From the NCBI GenBank assembly GCA_051453625.1, contig JBOZIK010000001.1, forward strand, positions 49,725,339 through 49,789,338: 64,000 nt of DNA. The letters are read 5' to 3'. Both the position numbers and the translations under genes were made by a program. Within the stretch, counting starts at the first letter, position 1. Every line of letters starts with the position of its first letter. This document shows positions 1,255-46,787 of this stretch, piece by piece. This DNA comes from Welwitschia mirabilis (taxonomy: Eukaryota). The notes under the pieces were generated by a model, which saw only the letters and a list, made by a program, of their open reading frames with translations, was not told the origin of the DNA and did no database searches.

Positions 1255-1257
1255 GTT

Positions 1258-1275
1258 CGACACTAGAAGGAGGGC
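1258..1275 (+). promoter_or_regulatory. Primer-binding site, tRNA-Asn type
   Basis: cgacactagaaggagggc versus TGGCGCTAGAAGGAGGGC, the complement of the plant cytosolic tRNA-Asn 3' end (recalled). All differences are transitions, and it lies just after the LTR end. Confidence 0.7.
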
Positions 1276-1360
1276 CTCTCTAGTGGGTTTTGCAACAATT
1301 TGTCAAGTCTTTCACACACACTTTTTTTCATCGTCTTGTTAGAAATTTAGAATAGTCATA

Positions 1361-2179: not shown

Positions 2180-2279
2180 NNNNNNNNNNNNNNNNNNNNN
2201 NNNNNNNNNNNNNNNNNNNNNNNNNNNNNNNNNNNNNNNNNNNNNNNNNNNNNNNNNNNNNNNNNNNNNNNNNNNNNNN

Positions 2280-4000: not shown

Positions 4001-7000
4001 ATATCCATACCAATTTTCAGTTAGAGATACTCCTTTTTTAGTATATCGACCAATATGATTATCAAGATTTACTATTGTATTCACTGTTTCACCTCAAAAA
4101 TAGGTTTTACAACCACTAAAATACATCATGGAATAATCCATATCCATGATAGTGTGATTAAATAACTTAGTAAGACCATTTTATTAGGGTTTCCTAGGGT
4201 AGGTATTCAAATGTCAAATCCCTTCGGAAGCGAGAACTTCCTTAAACTTACTTTTCTATTTTATTCAACTTACTTTTCTAAATAAGTTTTGAACTTATTA
4301 AAAATACCCAAAGTCTAGGATTTGAATTTGATGAAGTATACACCGTTATTCAGTAGTAGTCGTCAATAAAAGAGACAAAATAATAAAACTTGTGGAGAGT
4401 GGAAACTGACATAGGTTTACATAGATCACTATGAATAAGCAGAAGCTTTCAATTGACATACCACTTACTTGGTGCAAACTATTATCGAGTTACTTTACCT
4501 ATAATATATGCTTTACATTGAGGAAAATATCATGGAATAGAAGGAAGAAGCTAGTGGTCATTCTCAAGTATTACATTTATCATATAAGAAGTAGGACATC
4601 CTAGTCGAGCATGCCACAGTAACAAGGAAGAGATCTTGGCTTGGGAAATTATGCAACTAATCTCTTACATTCTGACATAATCATAAATATGAATAATCTT
4701 TCTATTCATGTTGCCTTTCATAACTAGTTATTGATTGCTATTAAAGTGCTTTGTCATAGAAATTTAATGATCTTCGTATACTAGAATGAAAAGTAATAGA
4801 AAATGTAACCTAAAAAAAGGCATATACAGAACATGAGAAAGAATCTGTGGAGAGAGTGATGTCAAGTTAAGGATAAATAAACCATAGCCTTTCATTAGAA
4901 CTAAATTTCTATTGACCAAATAAACCTGACTTAACACTTAAATAAAGTCATTAAAATAATCATGCTAATGAGTTATGTGATGAATAAAACCTATATTAAG
5001 AATTTACATCTTATCATGATGTATATGCTCATTCATAACCACAAATTTAAAGTTGTCAGAAATTGCATTTGACTCAAAATTTTCATTATGAAGTGATTCA
5101 GATTCTTTTGTAATTAAATTGGCCTTAGTTGTAGATTTTATCTTATCCCAAGGTATCCTATNNNNNNNNNNNNNNNNNNNNNNNNNNNNNNNNNNNNNNN
5201 NNNNNNNNNNNNNNNNNNNNNNNNNNNNNNNNNNNNNNNNNNNNNNNNNNNNNNNNNNNNNAAATTATGCAACTAATCTCTTACATTCTAACATAATCAC
5301 AAAGATAAACAAGCTTTCTATCCATATAATCTTTCATAACTGGTTGTTAATTACCATCATAAATATCCACAGAGTGCTTCATCATGGAAATAGAGTGATA
5401 TTTTTGCACTAGAGTAGAAAGTGATAGAAGATGTGACCTTAAAGAAGGAACATATAGAACATGAAAAATAGTCTACAAAGAGAATAATGTCAAGTCAAGG
5501 GTAACTGAGCCACATCCTTCCATAGAAATTGGAGTTCTATGAGCCAAAAAACATGGCTTGATGCTTCAATGAAGTCATCAAAATAATTGCGTCAATAAGT
5601 CATATGACAAGTTACACCTATGTTAAGAATATGTGTGTTGTTATGAGGTATGTGCTCATTCATATCAACAAAGTCAAAGTTGTCAAAGACTATCTTTGGT
5701 TCATAATTTTTAACATCATCAAAACAATTAGATTCTTTGGTAACTCCATTGCCTTAGGTTTAAACTATATCTTGTTCTAAGGAATCCTATAGAAGTCCAT
5801 GGTATGACTTTGTCTTTCACATCATGAGCACTAATATTTATTCATCTTTAGAGTGGAAACATTTAAAACTTATTTCTTAATTTGCTGGGTTTAATTAGAC
5901 TTCCTTTTTTGCTGTTTCTATGGAGCCCCCTTCCCATGATGTGATTCCTTTTGTAGATGGGATTTTTTTGGCAAACTATTTATGTTGATAATAAGGGCCA
6001 CAAGAATGAGAAACTTTACATCAGAGGAACGAGATCCAATAAAGTTAAATTGAGCTTTAGTAGCAATGAGATTCTTATGGAGCATATTAAAAGTCATATT
6101 GTGTAGTTGCTTGCTGTCATGTAGCAACATAATATAACTACGTAAAGATGATTCTTCCAAACAACAATGGATTAAGTTAACATAATGAATGTAAACTTGT
6201 TTTCGTGAATCAATTTCTGCTACATTTGCCTTGATGTCTTGCATCTATGCAATCAATTATCTGATCTACCTTTTTTTATAATGTAAACTATTTATGTGAG
6301 TTATGAGGTTAAGGAGCTTTGAATCATTTATAGAGTAGAATATATCCCTCAAGGTCTAGAAGTTGGTGTAGTTCAATCAACCAACTTCTTANNNNNNNNN
6401 NNNNNNNNNNNNNNNNNNNNNNNNNNNNNNNNNNNNNNNNNNNNNNNNNNNNNNNNNNNNNNNNNNNNNNNNNNNNNNNNNNNNNNNNNNNTAATAAAGT
6501 TAAATTGAGCTTTAATAGAAATGATATTCTTACTGAGCATATTAAAAGTCATATTGTGTATTTGCTTACTGTCATGTAGCAACATAATACAACTACGTAA
6601 AGATGATTCTTCTAAACAACAATGGATTAAGTTAACATAATGAATGTAAATTTTGTTTTCGTGAATCAATTTCCGCTACATTTGCCTTGATGTCTTGCAT
6701 CTATGCAATCAATTGTCTCATCTGTCTTTTTTTATAATGTAAACTATTCGTGTGAGTTATGAGGTTAAGGAGCTCTGAATCATTTATAAAGTAGAATATA
6801 TCCCTCAAGGTCTAGAAGTTGGTGTAGTTCAATAAACCAACTTCTTATGTTGATGAGTGATAGATTTCTACATAGTCTCTGTTAATTTTTCATCAATATC
6901 TTATCAAGAAGNNNNNNNNNNNNNNNNNNNNNNNNNNNNNNNNNNNNNNNNNNNNNNNNNNNNNNNNNNNNNNNNNNNNNNNNNNNNNNNNNNNNNNNNN

Positions 7001-22149: not shown

Positions 22150-23630
22150 TTTTAATCATTTGTTCTTAAACTTAAATAATTATAAAACTCATCCAAAACA
22201 TGAAACATCTCTTTTGTACATCAATGTGGCATCATTTACATAAAGAAAAGAATTTACTAGCAAATCACTCGTATTAGTAGAATGATCTATCATAATATTA
22301 TGCATCCATTACTCCAACTCATCAATCAAAATTCTAAACAAGGTATAAAAAAGAGGAAATCCTTGTTTACTCTGATTTCACTCAAAATTTCAAAATACTA
22401 TTTGAAATTAACATCTTCAAATCTAATGATAACTTCTTTATATATTCTTTAAATGCTAGAAAAAATATTTATAGGCATACTTATACTAAAAAGACATGTC
22501 ATAATTTGTTGCAAATTACTAAATCATAATCCCTTCAGAAATCAACAAAGGAAATAAAAATCTTTTTTCATAAGTTTCTTTGTAAAGTCTAAGTGCTAAT
22601 AAAAGGTGACTAAGTGGTTAATTGTAGAATGAATTTGATGAAAAACTAATGATGAAATTGCTCTCATTTTATTTTCTTCTACTCAATTGCAAATTATTTG
22701 TTTAAGTGTTGATTGTGTACTATTCTTTAATTAATTATCTTCAATATTAACCTATAATGCTAGTATCTAATTCACACAAACACATACTAGTATAGGGAGT
22801 CAATCCAATGGAGTATTCTAGAGAGGAATTCTGAGTGCATTTATAAAATTACTTTATTCAAGGAAAAAAAAGATTTTCTGTTTTAATTTCAGAATGATAA
22901 ATAAATAATAATGCAATGATGAATGAAATGCATTAAATTAATGCAAGGATGATATGCAAACCTAAATGCAAGTTCTAATCAATTTTTACCAAATTGTTGT
23001 CACCCAAGTTGGTCTTTATATACTATATCANNNNNNNNNNNNNNNNNNNNNNNNNNNNNNNNNNNNNNNNNNNNNNNNNNNNNNNNNNNNNNNNNNNNNN
23101 NNNNNNNNNNNNNNNNNNNNNNNNNNNNNNAATAATTATAAAACTCATCCAAAGCATGAAACATCTCTTTTGTACCTGTTTTAAATGAAGAAATCAATGT
23201 GGCATCATTTACATGAAACAAAGAATTTACTAGCAAATCATTTGTATTACTAAAGTGATCTATCATAATATTATGCATCCTTTCCTCCAACCCATCAATC
23301 AAAATTCTAAATAAGGTATAAGAAAGAGGAAATCCTTGTTTACTTTGATTTCACTCAAAATTTCAAAATACTATTTAAAATTAAAATCTTCAAATCTAAT
23401 GATAACTTCTTTATATAATTTTTGAATGCTAGAAAAAATATTTATAGGCGTACTCATACTAAAAAGACATGTCATAATTTATTTCAAATTACTAAATCAT
23501 AATCCCTTTAGAAATAAACAAAGAAAATGAAAATCTTTTTTTATAAGTTTCTTTGTAAAGTCTAAGTGCTAATAAAAGGTGACTAAGCGGTTAATTGTAG
23601 AATGAATTTGATGAAAACTAATGATGAAAT
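22150..23630 (-). other. Protein-like decayed reading frame of unknown identity (possibly retrotransposon gag)
   Basis: ...KLYKEVIIRFEDFNFK*YFEILSEIKVNKDFLFLIP/ILIDGLEERMHNIMIDHFSNTNDLLVNSLFHVNDATLISSFKTGTKEMFHALDEFYNY, present in two copies. No diagnostic motif. Confidence 0.3.
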
Positions 23631-28498: not shown

Positions 28499-31400
28499 CA
28501 AAATAAATATCTGCATGTTTAATTATATTAGAAATTTATTGAAAGATTAACTTATAGTTATTGATTTTATAAATTAATTAGAAGATTGAATTAACTATGA
28601 AATTTACTATTACTCATGTATATTTTTATATTATTATAGTTTAGAATTGGATTACTTAGCTTACTTTTGAAAATTAACTATAGTTTGGTGTAGATGTCTT
28701 TTAATTGTATCTTGTTCATGAAATAATAGTTATATGTGATTTGAAGTATTTAGTCATGTCATTTANNNNNNNNNNNNNNNNNNNNNNNNNNNNNNNNNNN
28801 NNNNNNNNNNNNNNNNNNNNNNNNNNNNNNNNNNNNNNNNNNNNNNNNNNNNNNNNNNNNNNNNNATGCTGTATCTTCAAAGGAAACTAAACTTTTTAAT
28901 GGATGGACTTATCTTTTTATAGAAGCCTTAAAGAACAACATTCAAGTCTCTAAATAGTTTTAGATTTTAGGGGAAAAATTACAAGAATCAAATGAACCTT
29001 AACTATATTTTAATAGTTGGCTTATTTGATAGGGTGAGGGTTGTCTGACTGCTTATTTAGAGAAAAATAATAGGAATTTTATTTACCAATTTCTTATCTC
29101 TTGATTTCATTCCTTATAGTAGTGAAATTGTAAGAGCCTTAGGCATTAAGGGCTTTATAATAGTGAAATCCCATGAATTACATTCTTATTATGTATCTTC
29201 AAAGGAAACTAAGATTTTTAATGGATAACTTATCTTTTTATAGAATCCTTAAAGGAAAACATTCAAAACTCTAATTTATTTTATATTTTGGGAAGGAAAA
29301 ATCTACAAGAACCGCATGAACCTTAACTATATTTTAATAGTTGTCTTATTAGATAGGTTGAGGATTATTAGAGGGCTCATGGAATGTCTAGCTTTTCATT
29401 AAGATTAGAAAACTTTGCTAGTTAATTAGATAAATATTTAAAAATAAATTATATATTAATGTTAAATTTATTTTTTGCTCATTTTAAAATAATAAAAGTA
29501 ATAATAATGATAGTCGAAATAAATATCTACATGTTTAATTATATTAGAAATTTATTGAAAGATTAACTTATAGTAATGATTTTATAAATTAACTGGAAGA
29601 TTGAATTAACTATGGAATTTACTATTACTTGTGCATATTTTTCTATTGTTATAGTTTAGAATTGGATTACTTATCTTACTTTTAAAAATTAACAGTAGTT
29701 TAGTGTAGATGTCTTTTAATTATATCTTGTTCATGAAATAGCAGTTATATGTGATCTAAAGTATTTAGTCATGTTATTTATTTGATGTAGTTACATTTAT
29801 TTATTACTATTATTATATTATTATTTACACCTAGTGGTTAGGCTTAGAAAGGATGGTTATGAAAACCTAAANNNNNNNNNNNNNNNNNNNNNNNNNNNNN
29901 NNNNNNNNNNNNNNNNNNNNNNNNNNNNNNNNNNNNNNNNNNNNNNNNNNNNNNNNNNNNNNNNNNNNNNNACATTTATTTATTACTATTATTATATTAT
30001 TATTTACACCTAGGGGTTAGGCTTAGAAAGGATGGTTATGAAAACCTAAAGTACCTATAGGCATCTAACCTTTATTGTTAGTCTTTAGTCATAAATACTT
30101 AAATCCCTTAGCTATTAGAGTCATAGATGCATACAGTGCAATTATAAACATGTTGAATATTTGGGTATAATTAGAAGTACTTAAGGATTTAGCCTAAAAT
30201 AGGTATGGTCACAACTTATTCTTGTATTACTTACATGATTCTAGTGTTTCTTGTATTATCTTACATGTCTAGAACTGTTTGTTAATAATATTTGTATGAT
30301 CTTACAACTTTTCTTTGGTGTCTTGCATGAATTGTTAGAGTTCTATAAAATTTGCTTGTGCAATCCCCCTTTATGTTACAATCCTTAAGATTTTAATAGA
30401 AGTTATAAAGTCTTGTGTATCTTGTTGATGTTATCCTTGAATCAGTCTCTTTTGCTAGCCTATTATAAATCATGTTTGTAGGTATCTTGAGTTGACCATC
30501 GACCTGTATTGTGACATGATAAATTATGAAAACTAAAACTAGCTAAGGTAATTAGTTGTATGGACTTAGAGAAGTCCTAAGGTTTTAGGACCAGAGTGCT
30601 AGAGTGAAAAGGGAGAAATATGCACAAATTAATATTATTTTTACCCCACATGGTAGGGTGCAGCTAGATTATTGGAATTTATTAGGGAATATGAGTAAAA
30701 GAAGATAATGTTAAGTTGATATGAGGTTTTGGTCATTCCTTAGCTAACATAGTGCCTTTATCTTGTACCTTATTCAAAGAAACCTATTTCTACCTATTCC
30801 TTGCCTTGGGAATTGTGATGGATGTAGTTATCACACCATACATGTATGTGTAGGACCTATTGTAAAAGAGAATACTAAAAAACACTAAAGGTAGCTATAA
30901 GTACTGGGTGTTATCTACTTTTTTGCTTTAGCTATATACATTATCATGTTATATTAGTTATATTTAAAAAGATACCTTATATCCAAGATTTCTATTATCA
31001 ACTTGGTTGATATGATGTAGTCAGCTAGCTATGCTCTAGTTATGTTATGATTTGATCACAGATAAATATTTTATCATTTTCTTAGAATTTGAAAATATGT
31101 GTATGACTATTTATTCCTATGAAAAATATTATATATGTCAAAAAATATTTTATCTTTTATTGGAATATATATTGTTGANNNNNNNNNNNNNNNNNNNNNN
31201 NNNNNNNNNNNNNNNNNNNNNNNNNNNNNNNNNNNNNNNNNNNNNNNNNNNNNNNNNNNNNNNNNNNNNNNNNNNNNNAAAGATAACTTATATGTGAGAT
31301 ATCTATTATCAACTTGGTTAATATGATGTAATTAGCCAGATATGCTCCAGTTATGTTATTATTTGATCTTAGATAAATATTTTATCATTTTCTTAGAATT

Positions 31401-31514
31401 TGCAAATATGTGTATGACTACTTGTTCCTATGAAAAATATCATATACATAAAAAAAAATATTTTCTCTTCCCTTGCAAGATCTATTATTGATATATATTG
31501 TTGATATATGTGTG

Positions 31515-31528
31515 TATATATATATATA

Positions 31529-31562
<34 letters not shown>
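31515..31562 (+). repeat. (TA)n-(CA)n compound microsatellite
   Basis: Read directly. Confidence 0.9.
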
Positions 31563-31566
<4 letters not shown>

Positions 31567-34500
31567 CATATACATCTATATGTATGTTATTTGTAATTAT
31601 TAGTGGTACTTTCATCAAGCCTAAGATTATTCATTTAATAACTTGCAGTTATAAACATAATTTATTTGTTATTTGCTATCAAATATTCCCATTCTCATGC
31701 AGAATCTTAACATAGTTGTTTAAGTTAACTTATTGTTGAATGAGAGGTCAAGAGTTTAAGTACCATTAGGTGTAAATTTTATACTTTAGCTTCCTTAATA
31801 AAGAATTTATTACTTGAAACAAATAGATTATTAGCATAAAAAAATTAGGAGGACTTTTAATCAAAATCTATTATTAATTATTATATCTAAAGGTTTCTTC
31901 ANNNNNNNNNNNNNNNNNNNNNNNNNNNNNNNNNNNNNNNNNNNNNNNNNNNNNNNNNNNNNNNNNNNNNNNNNNNNNNNNNNNNNNNNNNNNNNNNNNN
32001 NTATTAGTGGTACTTTCATCAAGGCAAAGATTGTTCATTTTAATAACTTACAGTTATAGACACAATTTATTTGTTCTCTTCTATCAAATATTCCCATTTC
32101 CATGCATAATCTTAGCATAGGTGTTTAAGTTAACTTGCTGTTCAATGAGAGGTTAAGAGTTTTAAGTCCCATTAGGTGTAAATTTTATACTTCAGCTTCC
32201 TTATAAAAGAATTTATTACTTGAAACAAATAGACTACTAGCATAAAAAATTAGAAGGACCTTTAATCAAAACCTATTATTAATTATTATATTTAATGGTT
32301 TCTTCATACTCTTAAACATATTACAACTAAGTGATATTGGAATTGGTAACTTAGCATGCATACAGCTCAATTATTACCTTTCACTCCTTGGGAAAGAACA
32401 TAAAATGTTATTAACATGATCTTCCCCCATCCTTACATGCAACAAATTCCTTGCTCTCACTCCTATTTCTTAGGGGCTTTTCTAAATTCAGGGCTATCTC
32501 TTCATAAAGAGAGGTGGGCCATTAGATTTTAATATTTGTTTTCCTTGCCACATCCTTATTGATGTGGCATAACCCATCAATAAGCTTCATGGCCTACATC
32601 AGTTTTATTCAGAGGCATTAACATGCCCATGAAATAAATGATGAATACTAAACTCATGGTGCTTGACTCCCACCTCTTTTGGTTTATTCCACTTGCTAGT
32701 TTTCAAGGCAAAGATTATTACATAGCTTGATAATTTCATTGCTTTTAAACGTCCATTATTCAATCCTTTCTTCTTCTATAAAGGAGAAAAGATTCCACTC
32801 ACCTTCAAATTTAACTGTCGAAACAAAGATACCTATGAGAAATTCTCTTTCAGTTGCTTGCAAAGTTTAGACCAACTTAACTGAGTGAGCTTCATCTAAA
32901 CATTTCCTTGTGTATGGATTCAGATAGACTCATGTGTCTCCTTATGTCTGGGAAAAGATGTTACAAGTGTGAATCCCCTATATTAATTTAATAGATAATG
33001 CTCTAACTTTTACAAATTTAAATCTTTTAATGCCAACATTTCTTATAGACACATTTTCTAGCAAGATGTTGAGTATGAAAACTCCATTTCAGTTTTTTTT
33101 TAGAAGATCTTTTAGAATGCTAGAGAATTGGAGCATCTTATTTCTTTTTCGTGTAAATGAAAACAACTAATTTAGAGTGTCTGTATTCTTGAATTTGCTT
33201 TTATTTGTGAGGCTAGTAAACTCACTTTACTACCTTTCTTGTTTAGGGCTTAAAATGGTACATTTATCATTTACTAAACTAAGCAATTTAAGCTTTACAA
33301 TAGTCTTAACCAAATGCCTTTCCACTGGTTTTATGAAATTAACTATAATTTTTATGCTTTGAAACTTCACAAAATATATAATTTTTTGTTTTTTCTGAAT
33401 GTCATGGTAAAAATCCTAATACTAGGAGTAGTAAATTTTAATGGCCTAATAATTGGGAGTGGTAATTCTTATGGGACTTAACTTTAACATCTTTGAAAAG
33501 TATCCTAAAATTCTTTTAATTGACATTTGTGTTAATCAGGATAGGTTTTTATGGAAGTGATTGGAAATTCATTCATAAGGGACTATTTTTACTATAAACA
33601 AAAGATTTATTTCCTGTGGACATCATTTTTGTTTGATTTTAGATGTTACAATTTATCACTACTTAAAATTAGCCATCTTTACTTATTTTCCCTTTTTTTT
33701 TTTTTGCTTTTCCACTAGTAATACTTCAAATTAATAATTATTTTTATTAGATAGTTAAGGGTATATTACAATGGTTATAGTGGAGATGATTTTATTCCTA
33801 ACTATTCTAAAATTCAATAAGATATCTTGTATTTTAATTGAATTAGTGGTAGGAATGGAGCATGTTTACAAATAACATGGGTGAGAAGATTATGATAATT
33901 ATTTTGTGTTAAATATATTTTTGACCATCCTCATCTCAAAAGAACTATTATGCTATTATAAAATTAAATAGAAAAATGAAAATTCTTATATACATGTACA
34001 CTATTCTTGATGTTATATCTTTAATTATTACTCTTTTTATTTTATTCTAAATAATAGTTTTTATTTTTGGATGAACATGTTTTCAGCTAAGCTTTTTAAA
34101 TTGCTATTACTAGATAAATTGTGATCCAAGCATATACACACCATTTTATATAAGGATTTAAGACTATTTTGCTTGAATAATAATAATTGGTGATGAAGTA
34201 TTATTATTTTATTATCATTGGTAATTATTTGAATGAATATATATTTACATTTTTAATTTCCATCTTTGGAACATTCAAAAAGTAGAAAGTAAGATGAGTG
34301 TTATCTATCAAAAATCCTAAATTCTTACACATGCTTTAATCATGTAAAGAAATATACTATGTATTTATGATGTCATATGTTTTTATTTAATATAAAAGAT
34401 AAGATTAAAGGATAATATAATTATATGAAGAACTGAAATGAAGAAGGAAGCTAGAGTTCGGGAGGTGCCAGATTGGCTAGAGTAGTTTTGGCATGCAGGG

Positions 34501-35584
34501 AGTGGTATCGACCACTAGATAGTCGAGCANNNNNNNNNNNNNNNNNNNNNNNNNNNNNNNNNNNNNNNNNNNNNNNNNNNNNNNNNNNNNNNNNNNNNNN
34601 NNNNNNNNNNNNNNNNNNNNNNNNNNNNNGTCGCGCAATGGGAAAGTTATGTTTTTTTTTTTTTTTTTTTTTTGTTTTTTTTTTTTTTTTTTGTTATTCA
34701 GCATTGATTCAAAGCAGGTTTTAAAAAGGAACTCGTGCCCTCAAAATGGAGAAGACTTACTTCTTGAAGAAGGAAAAACTCCTAATCTTAGACATAGATA
34801 AAGGTACATGTTTAGAACTAGAGAAGAAACTTAAATACAGTTTAATAGCTAAGTTTGTTTAATATAGTCTAAAACCTAGACTTAATCTCATTAGAGAATG
34901 GATAGTACAAAATGGACTAGGATTAGTAAAGTTGAGTTTATAGCCATGCTAGAAGGATTAGTACTCTTCTAGTTAGATAATGAACTGGATCGAGATGAGG
35001 TCATCATGAGAGGACCCTGGTTTTTAGAGTGAGTGGGTTTTCCCTAGCCAAATGGATACAAGGGATGCAATCGGACCTAAATCTGTTTAAAAAAATGTTA
35101 ATATGGATACATATACATAAGTTCCCCTTGAAGATTTAGAACAAAAATCTCTTGAATAAAATTGCTTCTCAATTTGGAGAACTACTAAAACTAGATAGAA
35201 TAACAATAAAACAGACAAGGTTGGTCTCAGAAAGATTTTGTATGTGGATAAGTCTAGAAGAAACAAAAGAGATATAATCTNNNNNNNNNNNNNNNNNNNN
35301 NNNNNNNNNNNNNNNNNNNNNNNNNNNNNNNNNNNNNNNNNNNNNNNNNNNNNNNNNNNNNNNNNNNNNNNNNNNNNNNNAACTTGAACTAAACTGGAGT
35401 GAAGGAGGAAGATAGGGTTTAGAAGGTACCGGATTGACGAGGGTAGTTTTGGTTTTGGAAAGTTATAGCATGCAGGGGAGGGTATCGGCCACCAGACAGA
35501 TAAGTAATGGATAAGTTGTGGTATTTCTTTGTTATTTCTACATTGATTCAAAGTAGGATTTAAAGAGGGGTTCATGCCTTTAAA

Positions 35585-36700
35585 ATGAAGAATAGTTAGT
35601 TCTTCAAAGAGGGAAAAACCTTATTCTTAAATATAGAGAAAGACACATGTTTAGAAATAGAGAAGAAACTTCAATACAGCTTAATTGGTAAGTTTGTTTC
35701 ATCTGGTCTAAGACCTAGACTTGATCTCATCAGAGAATGGATAACTACAAAATAAACTGGGGTTAGTAAAGTCGAGGTCATACCCATGTCAGAAGTATTA
35801 ATTCTCTTCTAGTTAGATAATGAACAGGATCAAAATAAGGTCATCACAAGAGGACCTTGGTTTTTCGAAGTGAATGTGTTAGCCCTAGCTAAATGGATGA
35901 CGTGGGCACAATCGAACCCAAATTTATTCAAGAAAATGCCAATATAGATTTGTATACATTAGTTTCTCTTGGAGTTTGGGGACAAAGATCTCTTGAAAAA
36001 AATTACTTCTCAGTTTGGAGAACTCATAAAAATAGATAGAATAACTATAAAATAGACAACATTGGTCCTAGAAAGATTTTGTATGTGGATAAGTCTAGAA
36101 GAAACAAAGGAGATACAACCTATTAAGTTTGGATCTAAATGGAGCACATACTATCTCAAAGTCACTTATGAGAACCTCTTGGTTATGTGTGAAACATGTG
36201 AAAAATCATGACACATCTTAATAAGATGCATGAAAATAGAGAATAAATGTTCCCATTGTGGGAGAAGGGGCCACACATAATGTAAAAAAAGACTTATTAC
36301 CAATGAAGGAAAACAAAATGAAACATACTCTTTCTATGGAAAGATAGGACATAATTAGAATGATTATTAGCATAAATAAAAGAGAGAGAAAATAGTCAAG
36401 AATACTACAGTCTACCCAAAGGAAAAGAATGAAAAGGATAGGGCATATAACCCCTTTCAACACCTTATGGAGGAAGATCCCAAAGACACTCAGCAATCCC
36501 AGAATTTAGTAAACATAGATGAGTTAAATGATGTTAAAGTTCAGAGGAAGGGAATATCTAGTAATAGAATCCTCAAAGAGAGGAAAAATACAAAAAATAT
36601 GGCTAACAGCTTCTAAGAAACCATTAAAGACATGCTAAAAAAGGTCAACAGATGCTTAAAAAGGGGTGAAAACAAACCTAATGAAGTGCCTCACCTCGAA
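35585..36700 (+). pseudogene. L1 ORF1 (DUF4283 plus zf-CCHC_4-like)
   Basis: LQYSLIGKFVSSGLRPRLDLIREWI, VITRGPWFF, ITSQFGELIKID, KVTYENLLVMCETCEKS*H. A second copy lies at 34745-35280. Confidence 0.85.
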
Positions 36701-39700
36701 CTACAGGGGATTAGGGTCCTCTTATAAGAAAAAGACCCTAAGAGATATGATCAGTAAATTTAATATCAATTTAGCCTATTTATAGGAAATAAAAATCTAA
36801 TATGGCATAAAATTGAAAAAACTCTAGCAATAATAAAACATCTTCACCTTTGTAGCATAAGGAAACTCAAAAGGTCTCATGACCCTCACAAATAAGGAGG
36901 CAAAATTGGTTAATAATAGTAAGAGTCATCTAACTATCTATCTAAATAAATAAGAATGGATCATAACAAACATTTACAATCCTCAGAATGACCCAGACAA
37001 AGTCTTCACCTTCAAGGACCTTTATAGGATAATGGTGGAAAATATCAAGTGATTAGTAGTGGGGGATTTTAATCAATGTCTTTACCGTTGAGAGAAAACG
37101 AGGGCTGAAAACTAGAATAGTAGATGAACNNNNNNNNNNAATACACTTGGTCTAATAAAAGGATGAGAGGCAAACAGCTGATGTCCAGGATAGATTAAAT
37201 ACTTGCCAGAAATAATATTATAAAGCTATTAATTGAGGCTAATGGAATTAATAGAATAGCCTTGGATTACTAAATAATTAAATATAGAATAGGGATGATA
37301 AATCCCCCTAGAGCCTATTTTTGGATGGAACGATATTGGATCATAAGGACAGAAACCAAAATGTTAGTTGAAAATATATGGAGTTAATATGATGGCACCC
37401 GCCCTTTNNNNNNNNNNNNNNNNNNNNNNNNNNNNNNNNNNNNNNNNNNNNNNNNNNNNNNNNNNNNNNNNNNNNNNNNNNNNNNNNNNNNNNNNNNNNN
37501 NNNNNNNATACTCATAGGAAATAATATTATAAAGCTACTAATTAAGGCTAATGGGATGAACAGAATAATCTTGGATCACTAACCAACTAAATATAGAATA
37601 GGGATGATAAAGCCCCTAGAGCCTATTTTTATATGAAATGATATTAGATCATAAGGACAGAAACCAAAACGTTAGTTAAAAAGATATGGAGTTAATATGA
37701 TGGAACCCTTTCTTTTACTTTCCTCTACAGAGGCTTAAACACCCTTAAAGCACACATCAAGAACTAGAGAAGGAAGGACAAGAAAAGATATAAATTAAAA
37801 AATAACCTAGAGGAAGATTTACAGAGAATTCAAACTGAGCAAGAGGATAGATGAGATCAAGACTACTTCGTAGCGAGAAATACGGATGTCTTATAGAACT
37901 CCATGAAATAAATGCAAATGAGGAAAATTACTAGAAGAAAATATCAAGGATTAAGTGGATCAAGAAGAGGGGCATGCATACTAAATTTTTCTTCCAGTAG
38001 ACCAAATAGCACAAAGTATATAACAAAATAGGGAGGTTNNNNNNNNNNNNNNNNNNNNNNNNNNNNNNNNNNNNNNNNNNNNNNNNNNNNNNNNNNNNNN
38101 NNNNNNNNNNNNNNNNNNNNNNNNNNNNNNNNNNNNNNNNNNNNNNNNNNNNNNNNNNNNNNNNNNNNNNNNNNNNNNNNNNNNNNNNNNNNNNNNNNNN
38201 NNNNNNNNNNNNNNNNNNNNNNNNNNNNNNNNNNTCAAAAGGTTGGTCAGTTAAGCTAATTCAAGACTTAGTTTTCTATTATGGGTGACAACCTTCATGA
38301 TGTAATGTAAGACATCTTAAATAATAAATGCATTCTTAGGGATATGAATAGAACCAGGGTCATTCTCATTCCCAAAAAATAGGACGTGAGAAAACCAAAA
38401 GACTATAGAATGTTAGGTATCTCTAATGTTCTATATAGGATCTTTGTGAAAATAATGGTGGGTTGTATCACCTCCTTATTCCCAAAGTAATCTCTGAGAA
38501 CCAAGCTAGCTTCATCTACTTTAGATACATTTAGGACCAAATTCTCTTAATCCATGAAATTATTCATTCTATTAAAAAGCATATATTTCCTTTACTCATT
38601 ACTAAATTAGACATAATAAAGACTTANNNNNNNNNNNNNNNNNNNNNNNNNNNNNNNNNNNNNNNNNNNNNNNNNNNNNNNNNNNNNNNNNNNNNNNNNN
38701 NNNNNNNNNNNNNNNNNNNNNNNNNNNNNNNNNNNNNNNNNNNNNNNNNNNNNNNNNNNNNNNNNNNNNNNNNNNNNNNNNNNNNNNNNNNNNNNNNNNN
38801 NNNNNNNNNNNNNNNNNNNNNNNNNNNNNNNNNNNNNNNNNNNNNNNNNNNNNNNNNNNNNNNNNNNNNNNNNNNNNNNNNNNNNNNNNNNNNNNNNNNN
38901 NNNNNNNNNNNNNNNNNNNNNNNNNNNNNNNNNNNNNNNNNNNNNNNNNNNNNNNNNNNNNNNNNNNNNNNNNNNNNNNNNNNNNNNNNNNNNNNNNNNN
39001 NNNNNNNNNNNNNNNNNNNNNNNNNNNNNNNNNNNNNNNNNNNNNNNNNNNNNNNNNNNNNNNNNNNNNNNNNNNNNNNNNNNNNNNNNNNNNNNNNNNN
39101 NNNNNNNNNNNNNNNNNNNNNNNNNNNNNNNNNNNNNNNNNNNNNNNNNNNNNNNNNNNNNNNNNNNNNNNNNNNNNNNNNNNNNAGTTAATAGTTATAG
39201 ATCCAAGTTTTTTAGTAGGTCAAGGATTAATACAAGGGGATTCTTTATCTTTATAGCTCTTTCTATTCATTATGAATGTTTTACATGGATTTCTTAAAAT
39301 GAATGGAGTAACAGACATTAAAATAAGAAGTCAAATGTTTATTAATAGCCACTCTGCTAATGACACAATTATCATCATTAAAGCCTCTTTCCAGCAAGTC
39401 AGAGCTATCAAGAAGTTCATGAATCTTTTTGTAGAAGTTATGATCCTCCAAACTAATTGAAATAAATCTAGAATTCACATTGTTAGCAGAAGCATTACCA
39501 AAGGAGAGGAAACTGATAGAATCTTGAGCTCCAAAATGGAAGACCTTAAAGACATCTACTTGGGAATTTCGCTATGGAATTGGCACAAGATCCTAACTTG
39601 GAATTTCATCCTGGAATCAAGTTAGAGATGATGCAACACTTGGTAGAATAAATTTATTTCTTCTAAAGTAAATATCATCCTAGCAACTTCTTTTTTGGTA

Positions 39701-40380
39701 TCTTCTTTCAAATACATTACCTCCATTACTATCCCCTGAAAGAAAATAATTAACAAAATAAATAAAATCTTGAAGGACTTCATTTTGTTGGGATGTAAGA
39801 ATAGAAATCGCATTCATCTCTATAAATAGAAGCTTATAGCTCATCCTAAGGAGTTAGGAGGTTGAGGAGTCCAAAGGCTAGAATACTATCTTCTCACATG
39901 TGCACACAGAGTTCTCAAAGGACTATCTAAGGGAGGATAGCCTTGGATTAATATTATTAACTACAAGTATTAAACTTAAAATAATGGAGAAGGGGAGTCT
40001 TACCTTAGGAAACACCTCTGCAAAGCCAAAATAAACTTGATAGAATTAAACATTTTCAATGAATACAGAGCCAAGTAGATTCTTATCAAAAAGTATGAAA
40101 AAAATAATGCATGTAAAAAGTTTTAGAAGGGATAAATTCTAGACAAAATCAAGATATTCTGTTGGTTAAAATACCATAACTAAATTCTTACAAGGGATTA
40201 ACGGCTTAAGCATGACATGCAAGTTGACTTTAACTATCCAATCTACCAATATTATCAAGAAGATGTTCAATACCTTTTTCATCAATATAGGTGGAGTGCT
40301 AAAATGATAATTATGACTAGCTATTACAATGACTAGAACATATCTGCGACATGCAGAAAAGATGGAATTCAACTGACTTT
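36700..40380 (+). pseudogene. L1 ORF2 (AP endonuclease and reverse transcriptase)
   Basis: VVGDFNQ (37062-37073), YTWSNKR..SRID, VILIPKK..KPKDYRMLGISNVLYRIF, ISENQASFI, KLDIIKT, GLIQGDSLS (about 39224-39250), SAND (from FADD), YLGI, HPKELGG*GV. Partly gapped. Confidence 0.9.
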
Positions 40381-40440
40381 ATGATAGATTTGGCATACAC
40401 ATAATAAAGTAATATTCAATAGCATTTCCATTTCATTCCC

Positions 40441-40448
40441 TATAAATA
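40441..40448 (+). promoter_or_regulatory. Candidate TATA box upstream of the 3' extra frame
   Basis: cc-TATAAATA-caccctcacttcttcattc in a plant-like context, about 60 nt upstream of an ATG at 40502. Confidence 0.35.
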
Positions 40449-41914
40449 CACCCTCACTTCTTCATTCAAGCCTTATAACACAAAGACTTAGCAAGATACT
40501 TATGACTAGTTATGACTCTTTAGAAGGCTACAAGGGATTAGAGGACAAGGGAGGCCCCTCCCCCACAGGAGACTTCCCTAAAGGAAAAATAGAAGAAAAG
40601 GACTATAACTAATGAAGTGCCTTATCCTAAGAGGGATGTTGAGCCAAGAAGTCCATGCTCTCAGAGATGGATGACTCTTCCTTAGGAAGTTTAGACAAAT
40701 AAGGTGAGCTCATCCCTAGAATAGGAAGAGACATTTGAAGAAAATCCTCTAGCTAAAACCTAGGAATAAGAGCATCAGTTCTAAGGATATGACTAAGAGG
40801 TATCTTCTTAGAAGATAGAAGGTAGCCCCAATCATAATGAGGAGTCAAATTCCCCATTGGTTCCTCCCTAGACGAAAGAAATCAAGAACCTCATGAAGAC
40901 ATTACTATGGNNNNNNNNNNNNNNNNNNNNNNNNNNNNNNNNNNNNNNNNNNNNNNNNNNNNNNNNNNNNNNNNNNNNNNNNNNNNNNNNNNNNNNNNNN
41001 NNNNNNNNNNNNNNNNNNNNNNNNNNNNNNNNNNNNNNNNNNNNNNNNNNNNNNNNNNNNNNNNNNNNNNNNNNNNNNNNNNNNNNNNNNNNNNNNNNNN
41101 NNNNNNNNNNNNNNNNNNNNNNNNNNNNNNNNNNNNNNNNNNNNNNNNNNNNNNNNNNNNNNNNNNNNNNNNNNNNNNNNNNNNNNNNNNNNNNNNNNNN
41201 NNNNNNNNNNNNNNNNNNNNNNNNNNNNNNNNNNNNNNNNNNNNNNNNNNNNNNNNNNNNNNNNNNNNNNNNNNNNNNNNNNNNNNNNNNNNNNNNNNNN
41301 NNNNNNNNNNNNNNNNNNNNNNNNNNNNNNNNNNNNNNNNNNNNNNNNNNNNNNNNNNNNNNNNNNNNNNNNNNNNNNNNNNNNNNNNNNNNNNNNNNNN
41401 NNNNNNNNNNNNNNNNNNNNNNNNNNNNNNNNNNNNNNNNNNNNNNNNNNNNNNNNNNNNNNNNNNNNNNNNNNNNNNNNNNNNNNNNNNNNNNNNNNNN
41501 NNNNNNNNNNNNNNNNNNNNNNNNNNNNNNNNNNNNNNNNNNNNNNNNNNNNNNNNNNNNNNNNNNNNNNNNNNNNNNNNNNNNNNNNNNNNNNNNNNNN
41601 NNNNNNNNNNNNNNNNNNNNNNNNNNNNNNNNNNNNNNNNNNNNNNNNNNNNNNNNNNNNNNNNNNNNNNNNNNNNNNNNNNNNNNNNNNNNNNNNNNNN
41701 NNNNNNNNNNNNNNNNNNNNNNNNNNNNNNNNNNNNNNNNNNNNNNNNNNNNNNNNNNNNNNNNNNNNNNNNNNNNNNNNNNNNNNNNNNNNNNNNNNNN
41801 NNNNNNNNNNNNNNNNNNNNNNNNNNNNNNNNNNNNNNNNNNNNNNNNNNNNNNNNNACTATGGACCACACAGAAAGAGAAATCTTGCTTGCTATAATTG
41901 ATGGTTTGAAAAGA

Positions 41915-42082
41915 TGCCCTTTTTTAACACTAGAAACCTTACACAGATCTTATTTGTAAGCCATTAAGTCAAGTTATCAAAAGAAGGCATTCATATTGCA
42001 TCCAAACAAGAACCAGGCAGGAGCTGAGGAATTTAAGAAAGTAAATTAGGCATTTGAGATGTTAGTAGATAAAATGGGATGA
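41915..42082 (+). pseudogene. DnaJ/J-domain relic, copy 1
   Basis: CPFLTLETLHRSYL*AIKSSYQKKAFILHPNKNQAGAEEFKKVN*AFEMLVDKMG*. Confidence 0.75.
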
Positions 42083-42444
42083 TTCTTAGTTNNNNNNNNN
42101 NNNNNNNNNNNNNNNNNNNNNNNNNNNNNNNNNNNNNNNNNNNNNNNNNNNNNNNNNNNNNNNNNNNNNNNNNNNNNNNNNNNNNNNNNNNCTCATTCTT
42201 AGAGCAGGAAGAGATATTTTAAGAAAAATCCTCTAGATAAAACATAGAAATAAGAGCATTGGTCCTAAGGAGATGACTAAGAGTCCACTCCTTAGAAGAT
42301 AGAAGGTAGGCCTAGCCATAATGAGAAGTCGAATTCCCCATCGGGTTCCTCCCAGAAGAAAGAAATTAAGAGCCTCATGAAGACATTCATATAAACCATA
42401 CAAAAAGAGAAATCTTGGTTTCTATGATCGATGGTTTGAAAAGA

Positions 42445-42612
42445 TGCCCTTTTTTAATACTAGGGACCTCACATAGATCTTATTTGTAAGCCATTAAGTT
42501 AAGTTATCAAAAAAAGGCACTCATATTACATCCCGACAAGAACCAAGCAGGAGCTGAGGAATTTAAAAAAGTAAATTAGGCATTTGAGGTGTTAGTACAT
42601 AAAATGGGATGA
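42445..42612 (+). pseudogene. DnaJ/J-domain relic, copy 2 (HPD intact)
   Basis: CPFLILGTSHRSYL*AIKLSYQKKALILHPDKNQAGAEEFKKVN*AFEVLVHKMG*; matches the J-domain consensus (PY.iLG...IKkaYrk.al..HPDKN...aeeFk.in.AyevL.D). HPDK at 42529-42540. Confidence 0.85.
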
Positions 42613-42989
42613 TTCTTAGTTGAACACCATTATGGAAACCTCTTATCCAATTATAGGGGGTATCAATACCATTTTTTTCCTAGTTATTCTTACTTTAGTT
42701 TTATTTTTTACTATATTTTACTTAATTGTAGTTTTTAAGGGCACTTTTACCCCTAATTGTGCCTTGAAAAAAGCAGGTTCCTGCGATTATAGTAGGATAA
42801 TTTCCTTTTTTACGAATTGGGTTTGTTATTCCTCTTAAGTCAATGTGTTTTTATTCTCTTCCCTTCCCCCCCCCCCCCCAACCCCTGACATAAATTTTCT
42901 CATTTAATATAATGCTCATTTCTTTAAAAAAAAATAATAATATGATTAACCACATTCTAATATCCTCCACTAATGTAACTTCAAAAATA

Positions 42990-43900
42990 GTGACAAAGGA
43001 GTATATTAGTAAGGATCTAGAAGTAGATCATTTATCTATATAGTTCTTTAGAATACATTAGGATATTTTTGGAAAAGGCTACTTCAAAGTAATCTATAAA
43101 GCCTTACATGAAGGTAATTTAGGTTCAAAGCTTAACTAAAATTTCATTCATCTCTTTTTAAGTGACTTGGATTTCATTTTCAATTGAAAATCAATTATTT
43201 ACTCAATGTCTTTTATAAAATTTTAGATATATGTTTAGGTAAGAATTTCAATATTATTCTACCTAATATTATTTGTATTCATTAAAGTGATTTTATTAAG
43301 GATTAATATATTAATAATCTTATATCTACTTTGGAACCTTTAGCATGGGTAAGATTACCAATTTAGATATTGCCTTCCTTAATCTTAATATATGCAACAT
43401 TTCACAATAAAATTGAATGGAACTTTTTCTTAGCTTACATGAAAAATATAGGATTTAGAAAGGTTTTTGTTCATATGGTAACTTATTTTTTCAAAGTCGT
43501 AAATGCTTGTGTTATCACTATAGGATGTGCTACTTTCACCTTTCCTATTAAAAAATCTATAAGGCAATCATGTTCTTTGACTTCTATCTTTTTATCATGG
43601 TAATATAACTTTTATTTCATGATATTTAGAAGGATGAATAAGATAATCTTATTTAAGGTATTTGCATTGGTGCAAATTTAAAGTAGCTTATTAACATTTA
43701 CTTTATAAATGAATTCTTATTTTTACTTAAAAAGTCTAAAGTTTTAATTAAGTAGCTACTATTTAGGATTAATTTTTATTTTCTAATTGGTTTTAGGATC
43801 AACAAAAAAGTTTATAGTATTTAGTTTTTTTAAAAATTAGACATGGCTTTCTCTAAATTGTGAAAATTATTTAAGATGATGAGCTAATTAAAATTTATGA
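42990..43900 (+). pseudogene. Older, highly decayed L1 reverse-transcriptase fragment
   Basis: KSIILLNVFYKIL..ILPNII..*SDFIKD, KIEWNFFLAYMKNIGF, FPIKKSIRQSCSL (compare RGVRQGCPL). Confidence 0.7.
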
Positions 43901-43953
43901 AATTACCTTTTTTCTTTTTCCTTTTTTAAAATAAACTTTTAAACATCTATGGG

Positions 43954-46787
43954 TTTTTTTTTTTAAAAGAGAAAAGGTTATTTTATTAGTTANNNNNNNN
44001 NNNNNNNNNNNNNNNNNNNNNNNNNNNNNNNNNNNNNNNNNNNNNNNNNNTACTTATGGCTTGAAGGTCATACTTACTCCTGTTTTAAAAGTTCATCAAA
44101 CATATAACAGGGAATATTCTACAAAAAAAAAAAAAAAAAAAAACTAAACTACTAAAGATAAAATATCAGAACTACAAAAATAAATAGCAGGAAAGATTGA
44201 AAATAACTTATGACCATCTTCCATATTTTTGAACCAATTTCTCCCAATGTCAAAAATGGTAGAATTTTGTTGCTCATTTGTTCATCAAGATGTGTTTTAC
44301 TCCATTAATTTCAATGGTTTTTTCTAAGGCTTCTTAGAAATGGTCTCCATTTTTGTCTAGGTGCTACTATAAGATCAAACACATGTGAACTTTTATTATT
44401 TCCTACTAGGTTACTCTTATCTAAATTTCCAAACTCAATAGTGATTTTTCTAGACTTTGAAGGTATTAATTTCATCATAATATGAATTAGCCTTAGTTTG
44501 TGAGGTGAGCTTAATCTCGATATCCTTTTTAGTATAGCTCTCTCAGGAAGAGGAGCCTAAAATGTTTAGGCATTTTTCTTCTTTTCCTTTTACAATGCAT
44601 GCTTTGGTCTTTTATCTTGAGCCAACCTTGCATTATGGGTGTCTTACTCCACTCTGATGTCTAGAGTTTCTTCCTTATCACTGTAATAACTACTTCGTCC
44701 CCTAAATTTTGATTCTTCTGTTTATCATGCCTCATTTAATCTTTTTGTTGGGCTTGCTCATTCTAATGGTGATGCACATTGTTAGTTATAGGAGTGGGAC
44801 TTTTCTTCTTTAACTCTGCTACCTTTTAATGATCTATAGGGATTTCTTATTCTCTTGGATTTTGCCTTTGTCTTACCTTCTCTTAGGCCTTTCCTGCCTT
44901 TCCTATCTTGGGAGTGCTGGCCCATGTTTAACCTTATTCTTATTGGCTAGAAAATTTGTAAATTAATCATTCCATACATCGCCTTTTACTCTTATTATTT
45001 CCTCTTAGCCCTAAGCTGGGGGCTTCCTCCTTGCTGCTTCTATAGTTTTAATAAATTTGATTAATATTTTCACTAAGATAAATGCATCCATTTCTTAAGA
45101 GGTAACAAAAAATTGAAATAAATCCCTCTTAACTTTTAGTGATTTCCATCCTAGATCATGTATGTATCAATGTATTATGCCACTAACTTTCAAGTCTCTT
45201 TCAGCTCTAATTTACAAATAAAGCCCTTTCTTATCCTTAATTCCACTTACTTAAAGAAGTGATATGCATTGTTAAAGCTTGAGATAATCAAGAAGAAACA
45301 TTCCCTTACTTCTTGAAGTCCTAGTGCTTGTGCTATCATTTGTTGCATTATTAGATGCCTCTTTCTACCAATTACTAATTTACCCTTAACAACTATTTTT
45401 TTATGGCAAAAGAGGAATTGCCATTTAGCTCCATTAATGGATCCCATCCTAATGCTTTAATCCTATTCCATAGCTATACTTTTTGATTGAATTTATCTTT
45501 NNNNNNNNNNNNNNNNNNNNNNNNNNNNNNNNNNNNNNNNNNNNNNNNNNNTTTAATGATCTATAGGGATTTATTATTCTCTTGAATTTTTCCTTCATCT
45601 TGCCTTCTCTTGGGCCTTTCTTATTCTGGAAGTGCTGACCCATGTTTAACTTTATTCTTATTGGCTAAAAAACTTGCACATTAATCATTCCATACATTGT
45701 CTTTTGCTCTTATTATTTTCTCTTATCCCTAAGTTGAGGGTGTTCTCCTTGTTGCTTCTATAGTCTTAATAAATTCAATTAATCTTTTCACTAATATTAA
45801 TGCCTCCATTTCTTAAGAGGCAACAAAAAAATTGAAATGAATCCCTCTTAACTTTGAGTAATTTCCATCCTAGATAATGTACCTGTCAGTGTCTTTTACC
45901 ACCAACTTCCAAGTATCTTTGAGCTCTAATTTACAAATAAAGCCCTTTATTATTATTAATTCTACTCACTTAAAGAAGTGATCTGCATTGTTAAAGCTTG
46001 AGACAGTTAAGAAGAAACATTCCCTTGCTTCTTGAAGTCCTAGTTCTTGTGCTATCATTTGTTGCATTATTAGATGCCTCTTTCTACCAATTACTAGTTT
46101 ACCCATAACAACTGCTTTTTTATGGCAAAAGAGGAATTTCCCTTTAGATCCATTAATGGATTCCATATTAATGCTTCAATCTTATCCCATAGCTATAGTC
46201 TTTGATTGAATTTATCTTTTTTTTTTATGCATATTAAGGATGCCTACCATCTATTTTAGCACTAAAAAACTCATTAATTTCCTTCTGATTTTTGGAAGAA
46301 TGACACTTGCACTTGAGCTTATATTTTGAAAAACCTTCTAGTTATAAGCTAGCCAAAGAAATCATAGTATCATATCAATAATTTTTCTTGGTATGCAATA
46401 GATCTTCTCCTAATTTAATCCTCCATTAAATCCTTTCCATAACTCTTGGGTAAATAAGCATTTCTNNNNNNNNNNCCTCTAAGTATCCTATAATAATTTA
46501 TTTACCACATACCTTTTAAGTAATAAAGATTTAGCATTAATATGATGCCAATCTATTTTTTGGTGGTTGCTTCTCATGGATGGTTATTTTCTTTTTATGC
46601 AATCAATGGATCTATTTATGACTTCATTTCTTGAGTGAGGGAGGTTCACCCTACTTTATTAATCCTTCATTCCTAGATTTCTTATATTCTTTAATTCTAT
46701 TTTTGTTGGATTTATCTACTCTAGATTATTTTACTTCTTTTTATTAAGTACTGTGAATGACTAAAAAGGAATGTCATCCTTCTAATT
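43954..46787 (-). mobile_element. 3' part of a minus-strand L1-like LINE (zf-RVT-like, possible RNase H-like, long basic extension, poly(A))
   Basis: Minus strand *EKIYCIPRKII..FLWLAYN (zf-RVT-like, about 46420-46340) and EMEALILVKRL (RNase H-like). T11 run at 43954-43964 is a poly(A) on the minus strand, preceded by aataaa. Confidence 0.5.

Follow-up and report, generated by a model that had tools for sequence, protein, structure and literature searches.

The window, a 64,000-nt stretch of Welwitschia mirabilis draft scaffold broken by 44 N runs, holds a decayed, stop-riddled LINE retrotransposon of the plant L1 type at 34424-42936. Inside this unit, which is bracketed by a putative target-site duplication (TSD) and ends in an A-run, a genuine J-domain lies on the LINE sense strand. 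The features are the following.

34412..34423, + strand: putative TSD, upstream copy, 11/12 match to 42937-42948
34424..34746, + strand: LINE 5' end and 5' UTR, interrupted by a 100-N gap and including an extended T run (34652-34693)
34747..36260, + strand: ORF1 region, with two 82%-identical pieces, 34686-35280 and 35524-36121 (self-BLAST)
36600..38626, + strand: ORF2, endonuclease/reverse transcriptase (RT) part, stop-riddled, frame-shifted and gap-broken
39191..40615, + strand: ORF2, C-terminal part in a single frame, with RT thumb, weak zf-RVT, a tail of ~100 codons and closing TAA TGA at 40610-40615
40616..40910, + strand: 3' region of copy 1, first part, sharing its contig with the ORF2 end; 40709-40903 matches 42192-42387 at 84% identity
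41858..42082, + strand: J-domain pseudogene copy 1, PF00226 E 2.1e-8; HPN at 41999-42007; TAA 41957, TAG 42047, TGA 42080
42192..42324, + strand: 3' region of copy 2, first part; its upstream continuation, homologous to 40593-40708, is hidden in a 100-N gap
42325..42612, + strand: J-domain pseudogene copy 2, PF00226 E 2.4e-10; HPD at 42529-42537; TAA 42367 and 42487, TAG 42577, TGA 42610
42613..42936, + strand: terminal 3' UTR and A-rich tail, with a C run at ~42867-42880 and a 9-A run at 42926-42934
42937..42948, + strand: putative TSD, downstream copy, 11/12 match to 34412-34423

An earlier reading made from the letters alone (the sequence-only reading) had called the element an L1, and domain searches agree. 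In ORF1, Pfam identifies DUF4283 (PF14111) at 35717-36064 (E 1.4e-19) and, partially, at 35032-35223 (E 1.2e-7). A Cys/His knuckle near 36150-36260 is seen by eye in the translation and has no Pfam match. The RT part of ORF2 is matched by a Cuscuta LINE protein at 38260-38624 (tblastn, E 6e-8), while RVT_1 is weak, its E of 0.011 lying below the Pfam cut-off. No APE-type endonuclease was matched by Pfam in two frames of 36212-37129, a frame-shifted and gapped region. Along 36600-38626, summed read depth is 100-4500 in public DNA runs, indicating a high-copy family.

The C-terminal part of ORF2 resembles residues 1102-1387 of the Cuscuta campestris protein P0069 (BLASTP E 2e-8). Its zf-RVT (PF13966) at 40082-40285 is weak, with E 0.0016 and 19.5 bits against a cut-off of 27.5. 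The frame contains no frameshift; in-frame stops occupy 21 of its 475 codons, and the final 74 codons are open. Because TAA (6), TAG (9) and TGA (6) all occur among these stops, we ascribe them to ordinary decay and not to an altered genetic code. A changed code, with TAA and TAG read as Gln (table 6), had been suggested by the internal TAA/TAG and terminal TGA of the J-domains; it is out: the ORF2 frame has its six TGA too, and under table 6 the element stays closed. P0069 extends 118 residues beyond its zf-RVT, and the alignment of this extension with the ORF2 tail is not significant (49 of 500 shuffles do as well). A protein search with the ORF2 C-terminus for longer relatives gave a single distant match, and no close LINE relative with which to compare 3' ends.

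The sequence-only reading had also suspected a degraded 12-bp TSD around the unit. The two 12-mers that bracket 34424-42936 bear this out: when 41-nt stretches of the window are paired at random 1000 times, no more than 6 pairs match as well. Just past the upstream copy, summed depth in public DNA run X1 passes from single-copy to repeat level, staying at 7-8 through 34441 and reaching at least 54 from 34442. At the other end, ~313 nt separate the terminal TGA of copy 2 from the 9-A run, close to the ~300 nt of 3' UTR originally described, and some J-protein tblastn alignments continue past this TGA to ~42650-42670. The sequence beyond the A-run is repeated too, with a summed depth of ~49-57. 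Pfam finds no family in the six frames of the flanks 30001-34442 and 42901-46787; an RT-like stretch picked out by eye at 43166-43879 found no support from Pfam or tblastn. Many small palindromes prompted a look at RNA structure in the 3' region, which is unremarkable (z-scores -0.38 and -0.11).

Two copies of a J-domain segment

Both J-domains exceed the PF00226 cut-off of 27.8 bits, copy 2 with 40.8 and copy 1 with 34.6. The profile check proposed by the sequence-only reading thus comes out in favour of a J-domain between ORF2 and poly(A). Of the 63 profile positions, copy 2 covers 3-54 and copy 1 covers 14-56, the match stopping before the TGA in each. A complete, open, four-helix J-domain is absent from both: each has 2-3 in-frame stops, and the TGA precedes helix IV. 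Two J-domains had been announced with the motif HPDKN; they lie where they were placed, but the HPD tripeptide is found in one of the two, copy 1 reading HPN. The best PDB match of copy 2 is the J-domain of C. elegans dnj-12 (E 1.3e-7).

The two copies are 84-91% identical (self-BLAST) and, as the sequence-only reading had observed, they share two premature stops: a TAA (41957 and 42487) and a TAG (42047 and 42577). The TAG column is Q in both displayed PDB alignments, which fits a CAG>TAG change. Just upstream, the J frame is closed by TAA TGA in either copy, at 40835-40840 for copy 1 and at 42319-42324 for copy 2. In copy 1, an ATG precedes the J core by 19 codons; copy 2 has ATA in its place and, from the upstream TAA TGA to the J core, no start codon besides an internal Met. 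When 11 J-proteins are compared with the 3' region by tblastn, they match only 41861-42073 and 42352-42672, all other alignments having E of at least 0.48. Outside the J segment, nothing in the 3' region looks like a J-protein, and we therefore describe the segment as a fragment and not a gene.

The scaffold around these copies probably interleaves contigs of at least two paralogous LINE copies. Three local duplications lie inside the element, each adjoining gaps; the one in ORF2 pairs 37209-37400 with 37518-37708 (88.5% identical, self-BLAST). A 947-N gap inside the region is probably spurious, because both of its edges carry the same 7 letters; this overlap makes copy 1 contiguous with 40910. 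The two J-domain copies resemble parts of the 3' ends of two paralogous LINEs, and not a clean tandem duplication. Two ungapped contigs carry the relevant junctions. The first, 39186-40910, contains the ORF2 end and reaches 298 nt into the 3' region; the second, 42192-43992, leads from the homologue of this stretch through the J-domain and tail to the A-run and on into the flank.

Public reads show the segment in further variants. Contigs assembled from them contain at most 16-24 distinct variants of the J core: 16 contigs of run X5 have a letter at 41980, and up to 24 of run X6 a letter at 42031, that is found in neither window copy. The segment is thus not single-copy, an outcome on which the sequence-only reading had staked its L1 link. 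In X1, the summed depth of the J core is 71-127, against ~8 in the upstream single-copy flank. Over the stretch between ORF2 and J the summed depth is 17, a low value that is expected because the copies are only 84% alike there, short of the applied cut-off of 88%. One X1 contig of 1144 nt (record 6) joins the two parts directly: its letters 305-420 align with 40593-40708 and its letters 421-1144 with 42192-42919, with 1 mismatch. The order ORF2-end homologue, 3' region, J-domain is found in both of the two assessable copies, as the sequence-only reading had supposed, the remaining 10-20 J-core variants being unplaced. Altogether, an L1 lineage carries the J-domain segment.

Origin of the segment

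We consider it probable that one plant-type L1 subfamily took up a fragment of a cellular J-protein gene in its 3' region and has since carried it along as a passenger. The captured piece would measure ~300 bp and lie on the sense strand of the 3' untranslated region, comprising a short stretch before the J-domain and helices I-III, perhaps IV. We infer a single pick-up. Read-through (3' transduction) could have brought it about, as could template switching or RNA recombination in the course of reverse transcription; neither a donor gene nor a sister element free of J was seen, nor were the breakpoints of the capture. The lack of an internal A-run speaks against classical 3' transduction, since this would leave an internal poly(A): in the visible sequence of 40616-42925 there is none between the ORF2 stop and J, although gaps could conceal one. 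Since its capture, the fragment would have been copied with the element. It would by now be a pseudogene, decaying mainly by transitions, from which presumably no protein is made and which would have no function.

Alternatively, the J segment could represent another repeat or a processed pseudogene family, nested in the LINE tail or beside it and outside the LINE transcript. This we find unlikely. The J core is indeed deeper in reads than the stretch that separates it from ORF2, and the repeated sequence past the A-run makes the area a nest of repeats; but the cut-off accounts for the first of these points. Two diverged copies share the order from ORF2-end homologue through J to tail, J has no poly(A), TSD or terminal repeat of its own around it in the visible sequence, and the TSD encloses the whole unit.

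The sequence-only reading itself proposed a third ORF, possibly transcribed from an internal promoter and encoding an Hsp70 co-chaperone. The L1 subfamily would have encoded, or would elsewhere still encode, a small J-domain protein recruiting Hsp70 to the LINE ribonucleoprotein particle (RNP), and the present locus would be a dead copy. We hold this to be improbable, even though several traits agree with it. The segment is multi-copy and in sense orientation within the retrotransposed unit, copy 2 retains HPD, and copy 1 has its ATG ahead of the core. Over 75-95 codons neither copy has a frameshift despite 9% letter divergence, and the 227 nt that both share contain no indel. The J core is 91% identical between copies, compared with 84% just upstream (Fisher p 0.053). 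The pN/pS between the two copies is 0.52 over 75 codons (Fisher p 0.11), so that the dN/dS below 1 anticipated earlier is not significant here. Such figures hint faintly that the J core was once under constraint, but the statistics do not reach significance. Among the read contigs, three majority differences fall on the core, two synonymous and one Phe>Leu.

Against a functional third ORF stands the absence of a conserved start codon and open frame: TAA TGA lies upstream of both copies, the ATG is confined to copy 1, and the shared TAA and TAG suggest that the common source was probably dead already. The PF00226 match, moreover, ends at position 54-56 of 63. The TATA-like site at 40441 and the ATG at 40502-40504, in which the sequence-only reading saw the promoter and start, are both present; but this ATG is in the ORF2 frame and not in that of J, 110 nt ahead of the closing stops at 40610-40615, and both sites most likely belong to the ORF2 C-terminal tail. 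In one oligo-dT RNA run, a single sample of which roughly a quarter was read, 9.6 kb received 6 reads and 40541-43108 none.

Protein databases yield no open or close relative either. A search of 5.8 billion clusters for open relatives of 52-2000 aa came back empty. With the 95-aa read-through, a word-indexed search for longer relatives left none of 19 candidates at E ≤1e-3, and a search for near relatives gave no candidate sharing three words. Among 1.84 billion representatives there is no close relative; the best match has E 2.6e-9, at identities of 31-57%. The best matches include P0025 and P0043, both with a DnaJ + DUF1977 architecture, and none of the 29 scanned has an RT or endonuclease domain alongside J. 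In metagenomes, a 26-letter J pattern has no match, while a peptide-pattern scan returns 7 loci of generic J-domains (38-52% identity). A literature search over titles and abstract beginnings found no LINE with a J-domain.

A past third ORF is equally doubtful. The L1 subfamily would have gained, behind ORF2, a minimal gene of ~70-95 codons for a J-domain and would for a time have used it to bring host Hsp70 to its RNP; the copies seen would descend from it and have died. In that case the two stops common to both copies would have arisen late, in one master copy, or else in parallel, by C>T changes at methylated CAA/CAG codons. The present evidence does not point to a LINE-encoded Hsp70 co-chaperone.

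Finally, it is hardly credible that the link between LINE and J-domain is an artefact of a gap-ridden draft scaffold: the 44 N runs, the duplications beside gaps and the probably spurious 947-N gap would suit it, but the two ungapped contigs and, independently, the 1144-nt public-read contig carry the same link.

If a cellular fragment was captured, this is a LINE lineage in whose 3' region a piece of a host gene became fixed and was then propagated. Exon shuffling and pseudogene dispersal are known to proceed in this way, with less documentation from plants than from mammals. Should there be intact copies, a retrotransposon with its own Hsp70 co-chaperone would add a novel type of accessory gene to LINEs, and would offer a direct handle on the chaperone dependence of LINE RNP assembly.

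Comparison with known systems

In viruses, the J-domain is an expressed and functional N-terminal domain of a large protein, as in the polyomavirus T antigen. The LINE segment is likewise a J-domain on a mobile genetic entity, but it shows no open frame, nor expression in the one RNA run.

With cellular class A/B J-proteins, the segment shares the helix I-III pattern and the HPDKN loop, at 45-56% identity over ~50-65 residues. Its best solved matches are the J-domains of C. elegans dnj-12 and human DNAJA1. It differs from these proteins in being a J segment alone, with 2-3 stops and without Gly/Phe region, zinc finger, C-terminal domain or DUF1977.

DUF4283 is given as the dominant ORF1 domain of plant L1 elements in PMC5203782. 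The Welwitschia mirabilis element shares with plant L1-clade LINEs (PMC5203782, in its main text; P0069) this ORF1 domain, which in such LINEs goes with a zinc knuckle, an ORF2 with RT and a zf-RVT that is here weak and below cut-off, an A-rich tail and a short TSD. Conversely, the main text of PMC5203782 has no occurrence of 'DnaJ', and Pfam finds no J-domain in P0069. The 3' region of the present element, at ~840 nt, includes the J-domain fragment.

Further parallels are the 3' transductions of L1, known from mammals, and chimeric L1 insertions. The latter, with fragments of mRNA, are described for mammals in PMC11838501. In these as here, sense sequence of host origin follows the LINE body and precedes the terminal poly(A), with a single TSD around the whole, and is copied by the LINE machinery. 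The present host genome is of the plant type, and the visible sequence has no internal poly(A) remnant. Furthermore, the segment exists here in many diverged copies, seemingly as part of a propagating subfamily and not as a one-off insertion.

The decayed LINE and the end of its ORF2

At about 34424-42936, where the sequence-only reading saw an L1 LINE, lies a plant L1-type non-LTR retrotransposon in advanced decay: ORF1 carries DUF4283, and there is RT similarity to P0069, a LINE protein of Cuscuta campestris with RVT_1, zf-RVT and DUF4283 domains. DUF4283 is described as the dominant ORF1 domain among plant L1s (PMC5203782).

Features of the element and its surroundings
23186-23341 (- strand): RT fragment, remnant of another decayed LINE (P0069 by tblastn, 39% identity, E 7.6e-5)
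~31000-31100: (CA)n-type microsatellite, THTHTH... in read-through translation
34652-34693: T run of ~40 nt with two G interruptions, 5' UTR, directly after a gap and just before the ORF1 start
35032-35223: second, partial DUF4283 match (E 1.2e-7)
35717-36064: DUF4283 (PF14111, E 1.4e-19) in the ORF1 region, stops read through
38260-38624: tblastn match of P0069 (E 6e-8)
39191-40615: ORF2 frame, 475 codons, no frameshifts, 6 TAA, 9 TAG and 6 TGA
41858-42082: J-domain segment, copy 1
42325-42612: J-domain segment, copy 2
42867-42880: run of ~13 C, terminal 3' UTR, shortly upstream of the A-rich tail

P0069 also aligns with residues 7-285 of the 39191 frame (BLASTP E 2e-8); Pfam matches in ORF2 are below cut-off (RVT_1, E 0.011; zf-RVT, E 0.0016, a weak match ending near 40285). 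Two frames of 36212-37129, a frame-shifted and gapped region, gave no Pfam match to an endonuclease domain. The stops in the ORF2 frame are ordinary decay. A ciliate-type genetic code was rejected, as the element stays closed under it.

The ORF2 frame continues for about 100 codons past the zf-RVT match, the final 74 of them open, and closes at TAA TGA (40610-40615); P0069 has 118 residues beyond its zf-RVT. From frame continuity and similar tail length alone, we infer that the TATA-like site at 40441 and the ATG at 40502, earlier proposed as the start of a third ORF, lie inside the ORF2 C-terminal tail and begin no such ORF. Aligned directly, this tail and that of P0069 show no significant similarity: shuffles scored equally well in 49 of 500 cases.

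The J-domain segment

The J-domain is real. Copy 2 matches PF00226 with E 2.4e-10 (40.8 bits, cut-off 27.8; positions 3-54 of the 63-position profile) and retains HPD; copy 1 matches with E 2.1e-8 and reads HPN. The two internal stops noticed in both copies are an in-frame TAA and TAG at identical codons. Both copies terminate at TGA, and TAA TGA closes the J frame just upstream in each; at a codon that is CAA in copy 1, copy 2 has an extra TAA. Among solved structures, C. elegans dnj-12 (E 1.3e-7) and human DNAJA1 have the closest J-domains; in both displayed alignments the TAG column is Gln, which fits CAG>TAG.

A search of 1.84 billion representative proteins returned 68 at E ≤1e-3 and none at 1e-10, with 31-57% identity. 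All 29 of these scanned with Pfam have a J-domain, two (the J-proteins P0025 and P0043) also have DUF1977, and none has an RT or endonuclease domain. By tblastn against 40300-43000, 11 J-proteins match only at the two J segments, some alignments extending through the TGA to ~42650-42670; elsewhere in the 3' region no score is better than E 0.48. With J-protein similarity so confined, no more than some 300 nt of a cellular J-protein gene (class A/B) is present.

Copies, linkage and boundaries

The window is a draft eukaryotic scaffold with 44 N runs, mostly exactly 100 long (6374 N in total), and 28.7% G+C in called bases. Three local duplications (82-91%) in this one LINE each adjoin a gap: 34686-35280 with 35524-36121 (82%), 37209-37400 with 37518-37708 (88.5%), and 40593-42091 with 42192-42621. 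The last includes 40709-40903 against 42192-42387 (84% identity) and 41865-42091 against 42395-42621 (91%, no gaps). The simplest account of such gap-adjoining duplications is probably that the scaffolder interleaved contigs from two paralogs of the LINE; genuine tandem copies are a possible source too.

The 947-N gap at 40911-41857 is probably spurious, since the same 7 letters stand at either edge, the sole such case among the 8 gaps inside the element, and the two halves flanking it are contiguous in copy 2, with whose ungapped sequence the region is colinear. Copy 1 would thus run unbroken from the ORF2 end through ~300 nt to the J segment. In the public read set X1, one contig of 1144 nt holds a homologue of 40593-40708, differing at 15 of 116 positions, and directly after it 42192-42919 with a single difference; therefore copy 2, too, begins at or before the ORF2 stop. 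Interleaved or tandem, both assessable copies (2 of 2) have the J segment at the identical place just 3' of ORF2. The J-domain is part of this LINE lineage.

The stretch between ORF2 stop and J segment (40616-40910; 42192-42390) has many short palindromes around CTTAG/CTAAG/CCTAGG. Predicted RNA folding of the 3' region, this stretch included, is unremarkable and no better than shuffles.

From three DNA runs (X1, itself a pool of four, X5 and X6), contigs were placed on 33800-43400 at ≥88% likeness. Summed depth is ~7-8 in the upstream flank (X1), 100-4500 in the LINE body and 17-127 in the J bins. At two positions the contigs show a letter absent from both window copies: 41980 (16 contigs of X5, a single run) and 42031 (24 of X6). 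With the read depth, these variants show that the J core is multi-copy, existing as some ten to twenty, or more, divergent copies. It is much scarcer than the RT core, and its abundance matches that of the ORF2 3' end (depth 65-150) in order of magnitude. At 17, depth is low between ORF2 and J, where the window copies are only 84% alike and fall under the 88% cut-off. Beyond the A-run it is ~49-57, so the downstream sequence is also repeated and depth cannot mark the 3' boundary. Directly past the A-run, 43166-43879, repeated at that depth, resembles a decayed LINE RT by eye in read-through translation, unconfirmed by Pfam or by tblastn with P0069.

The 12-mers at 34412-34423 and 42937-42948, the first directly before the depth rise and the second directly after the A-rich tail, match in 11 of 12 letters; of 1000 pairs of 41-nt stretches drawn at random from the window, only 6 match equally well. 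This agrees with the degraded 12-bp TSD suggested earlier and supports a single retrotransposed unit including the J segment.

A captured fragment or a third ORF

The two J copies differ in 23 of 75 codons, 8 synonymously and 15 not, by 19 transitions and 6 transversions. Their pN/pS of 0.52 falls short of significance (Fisher p 0.11; 75 codons, two copies). The J core also diverges less than the stretch upstream (21/227 vs 31/197 differences, p 0.053). Such signals hint at constraint at most, and they are offset by the stops common to both copies, by a copy 2 without start codon, and by the lack of an open relative (0 of 19 candidates scored in the 'longer' protein search, no candidates in the 'near' search). 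From roughly a quarter of one oligo-dT RNA run, 6 reads fell on the 9.6 kb and none on 40541-43108.

The sequence-only reading was largely right in seeing a J-domain in a LINE lineage. Its Hsp70 co-chaperone ORF3, even as a once-functional one, is improbable on this balance; the segment is rather likely a piece of a host gene, captured and then carried along as a dead passenger. Judged by titles and abstract beginnings, none of the papers listed describes a LINE that has a J-domain. Mammalian L1 is known to capture host RNA or DNA that flanks it (PMC11838501).
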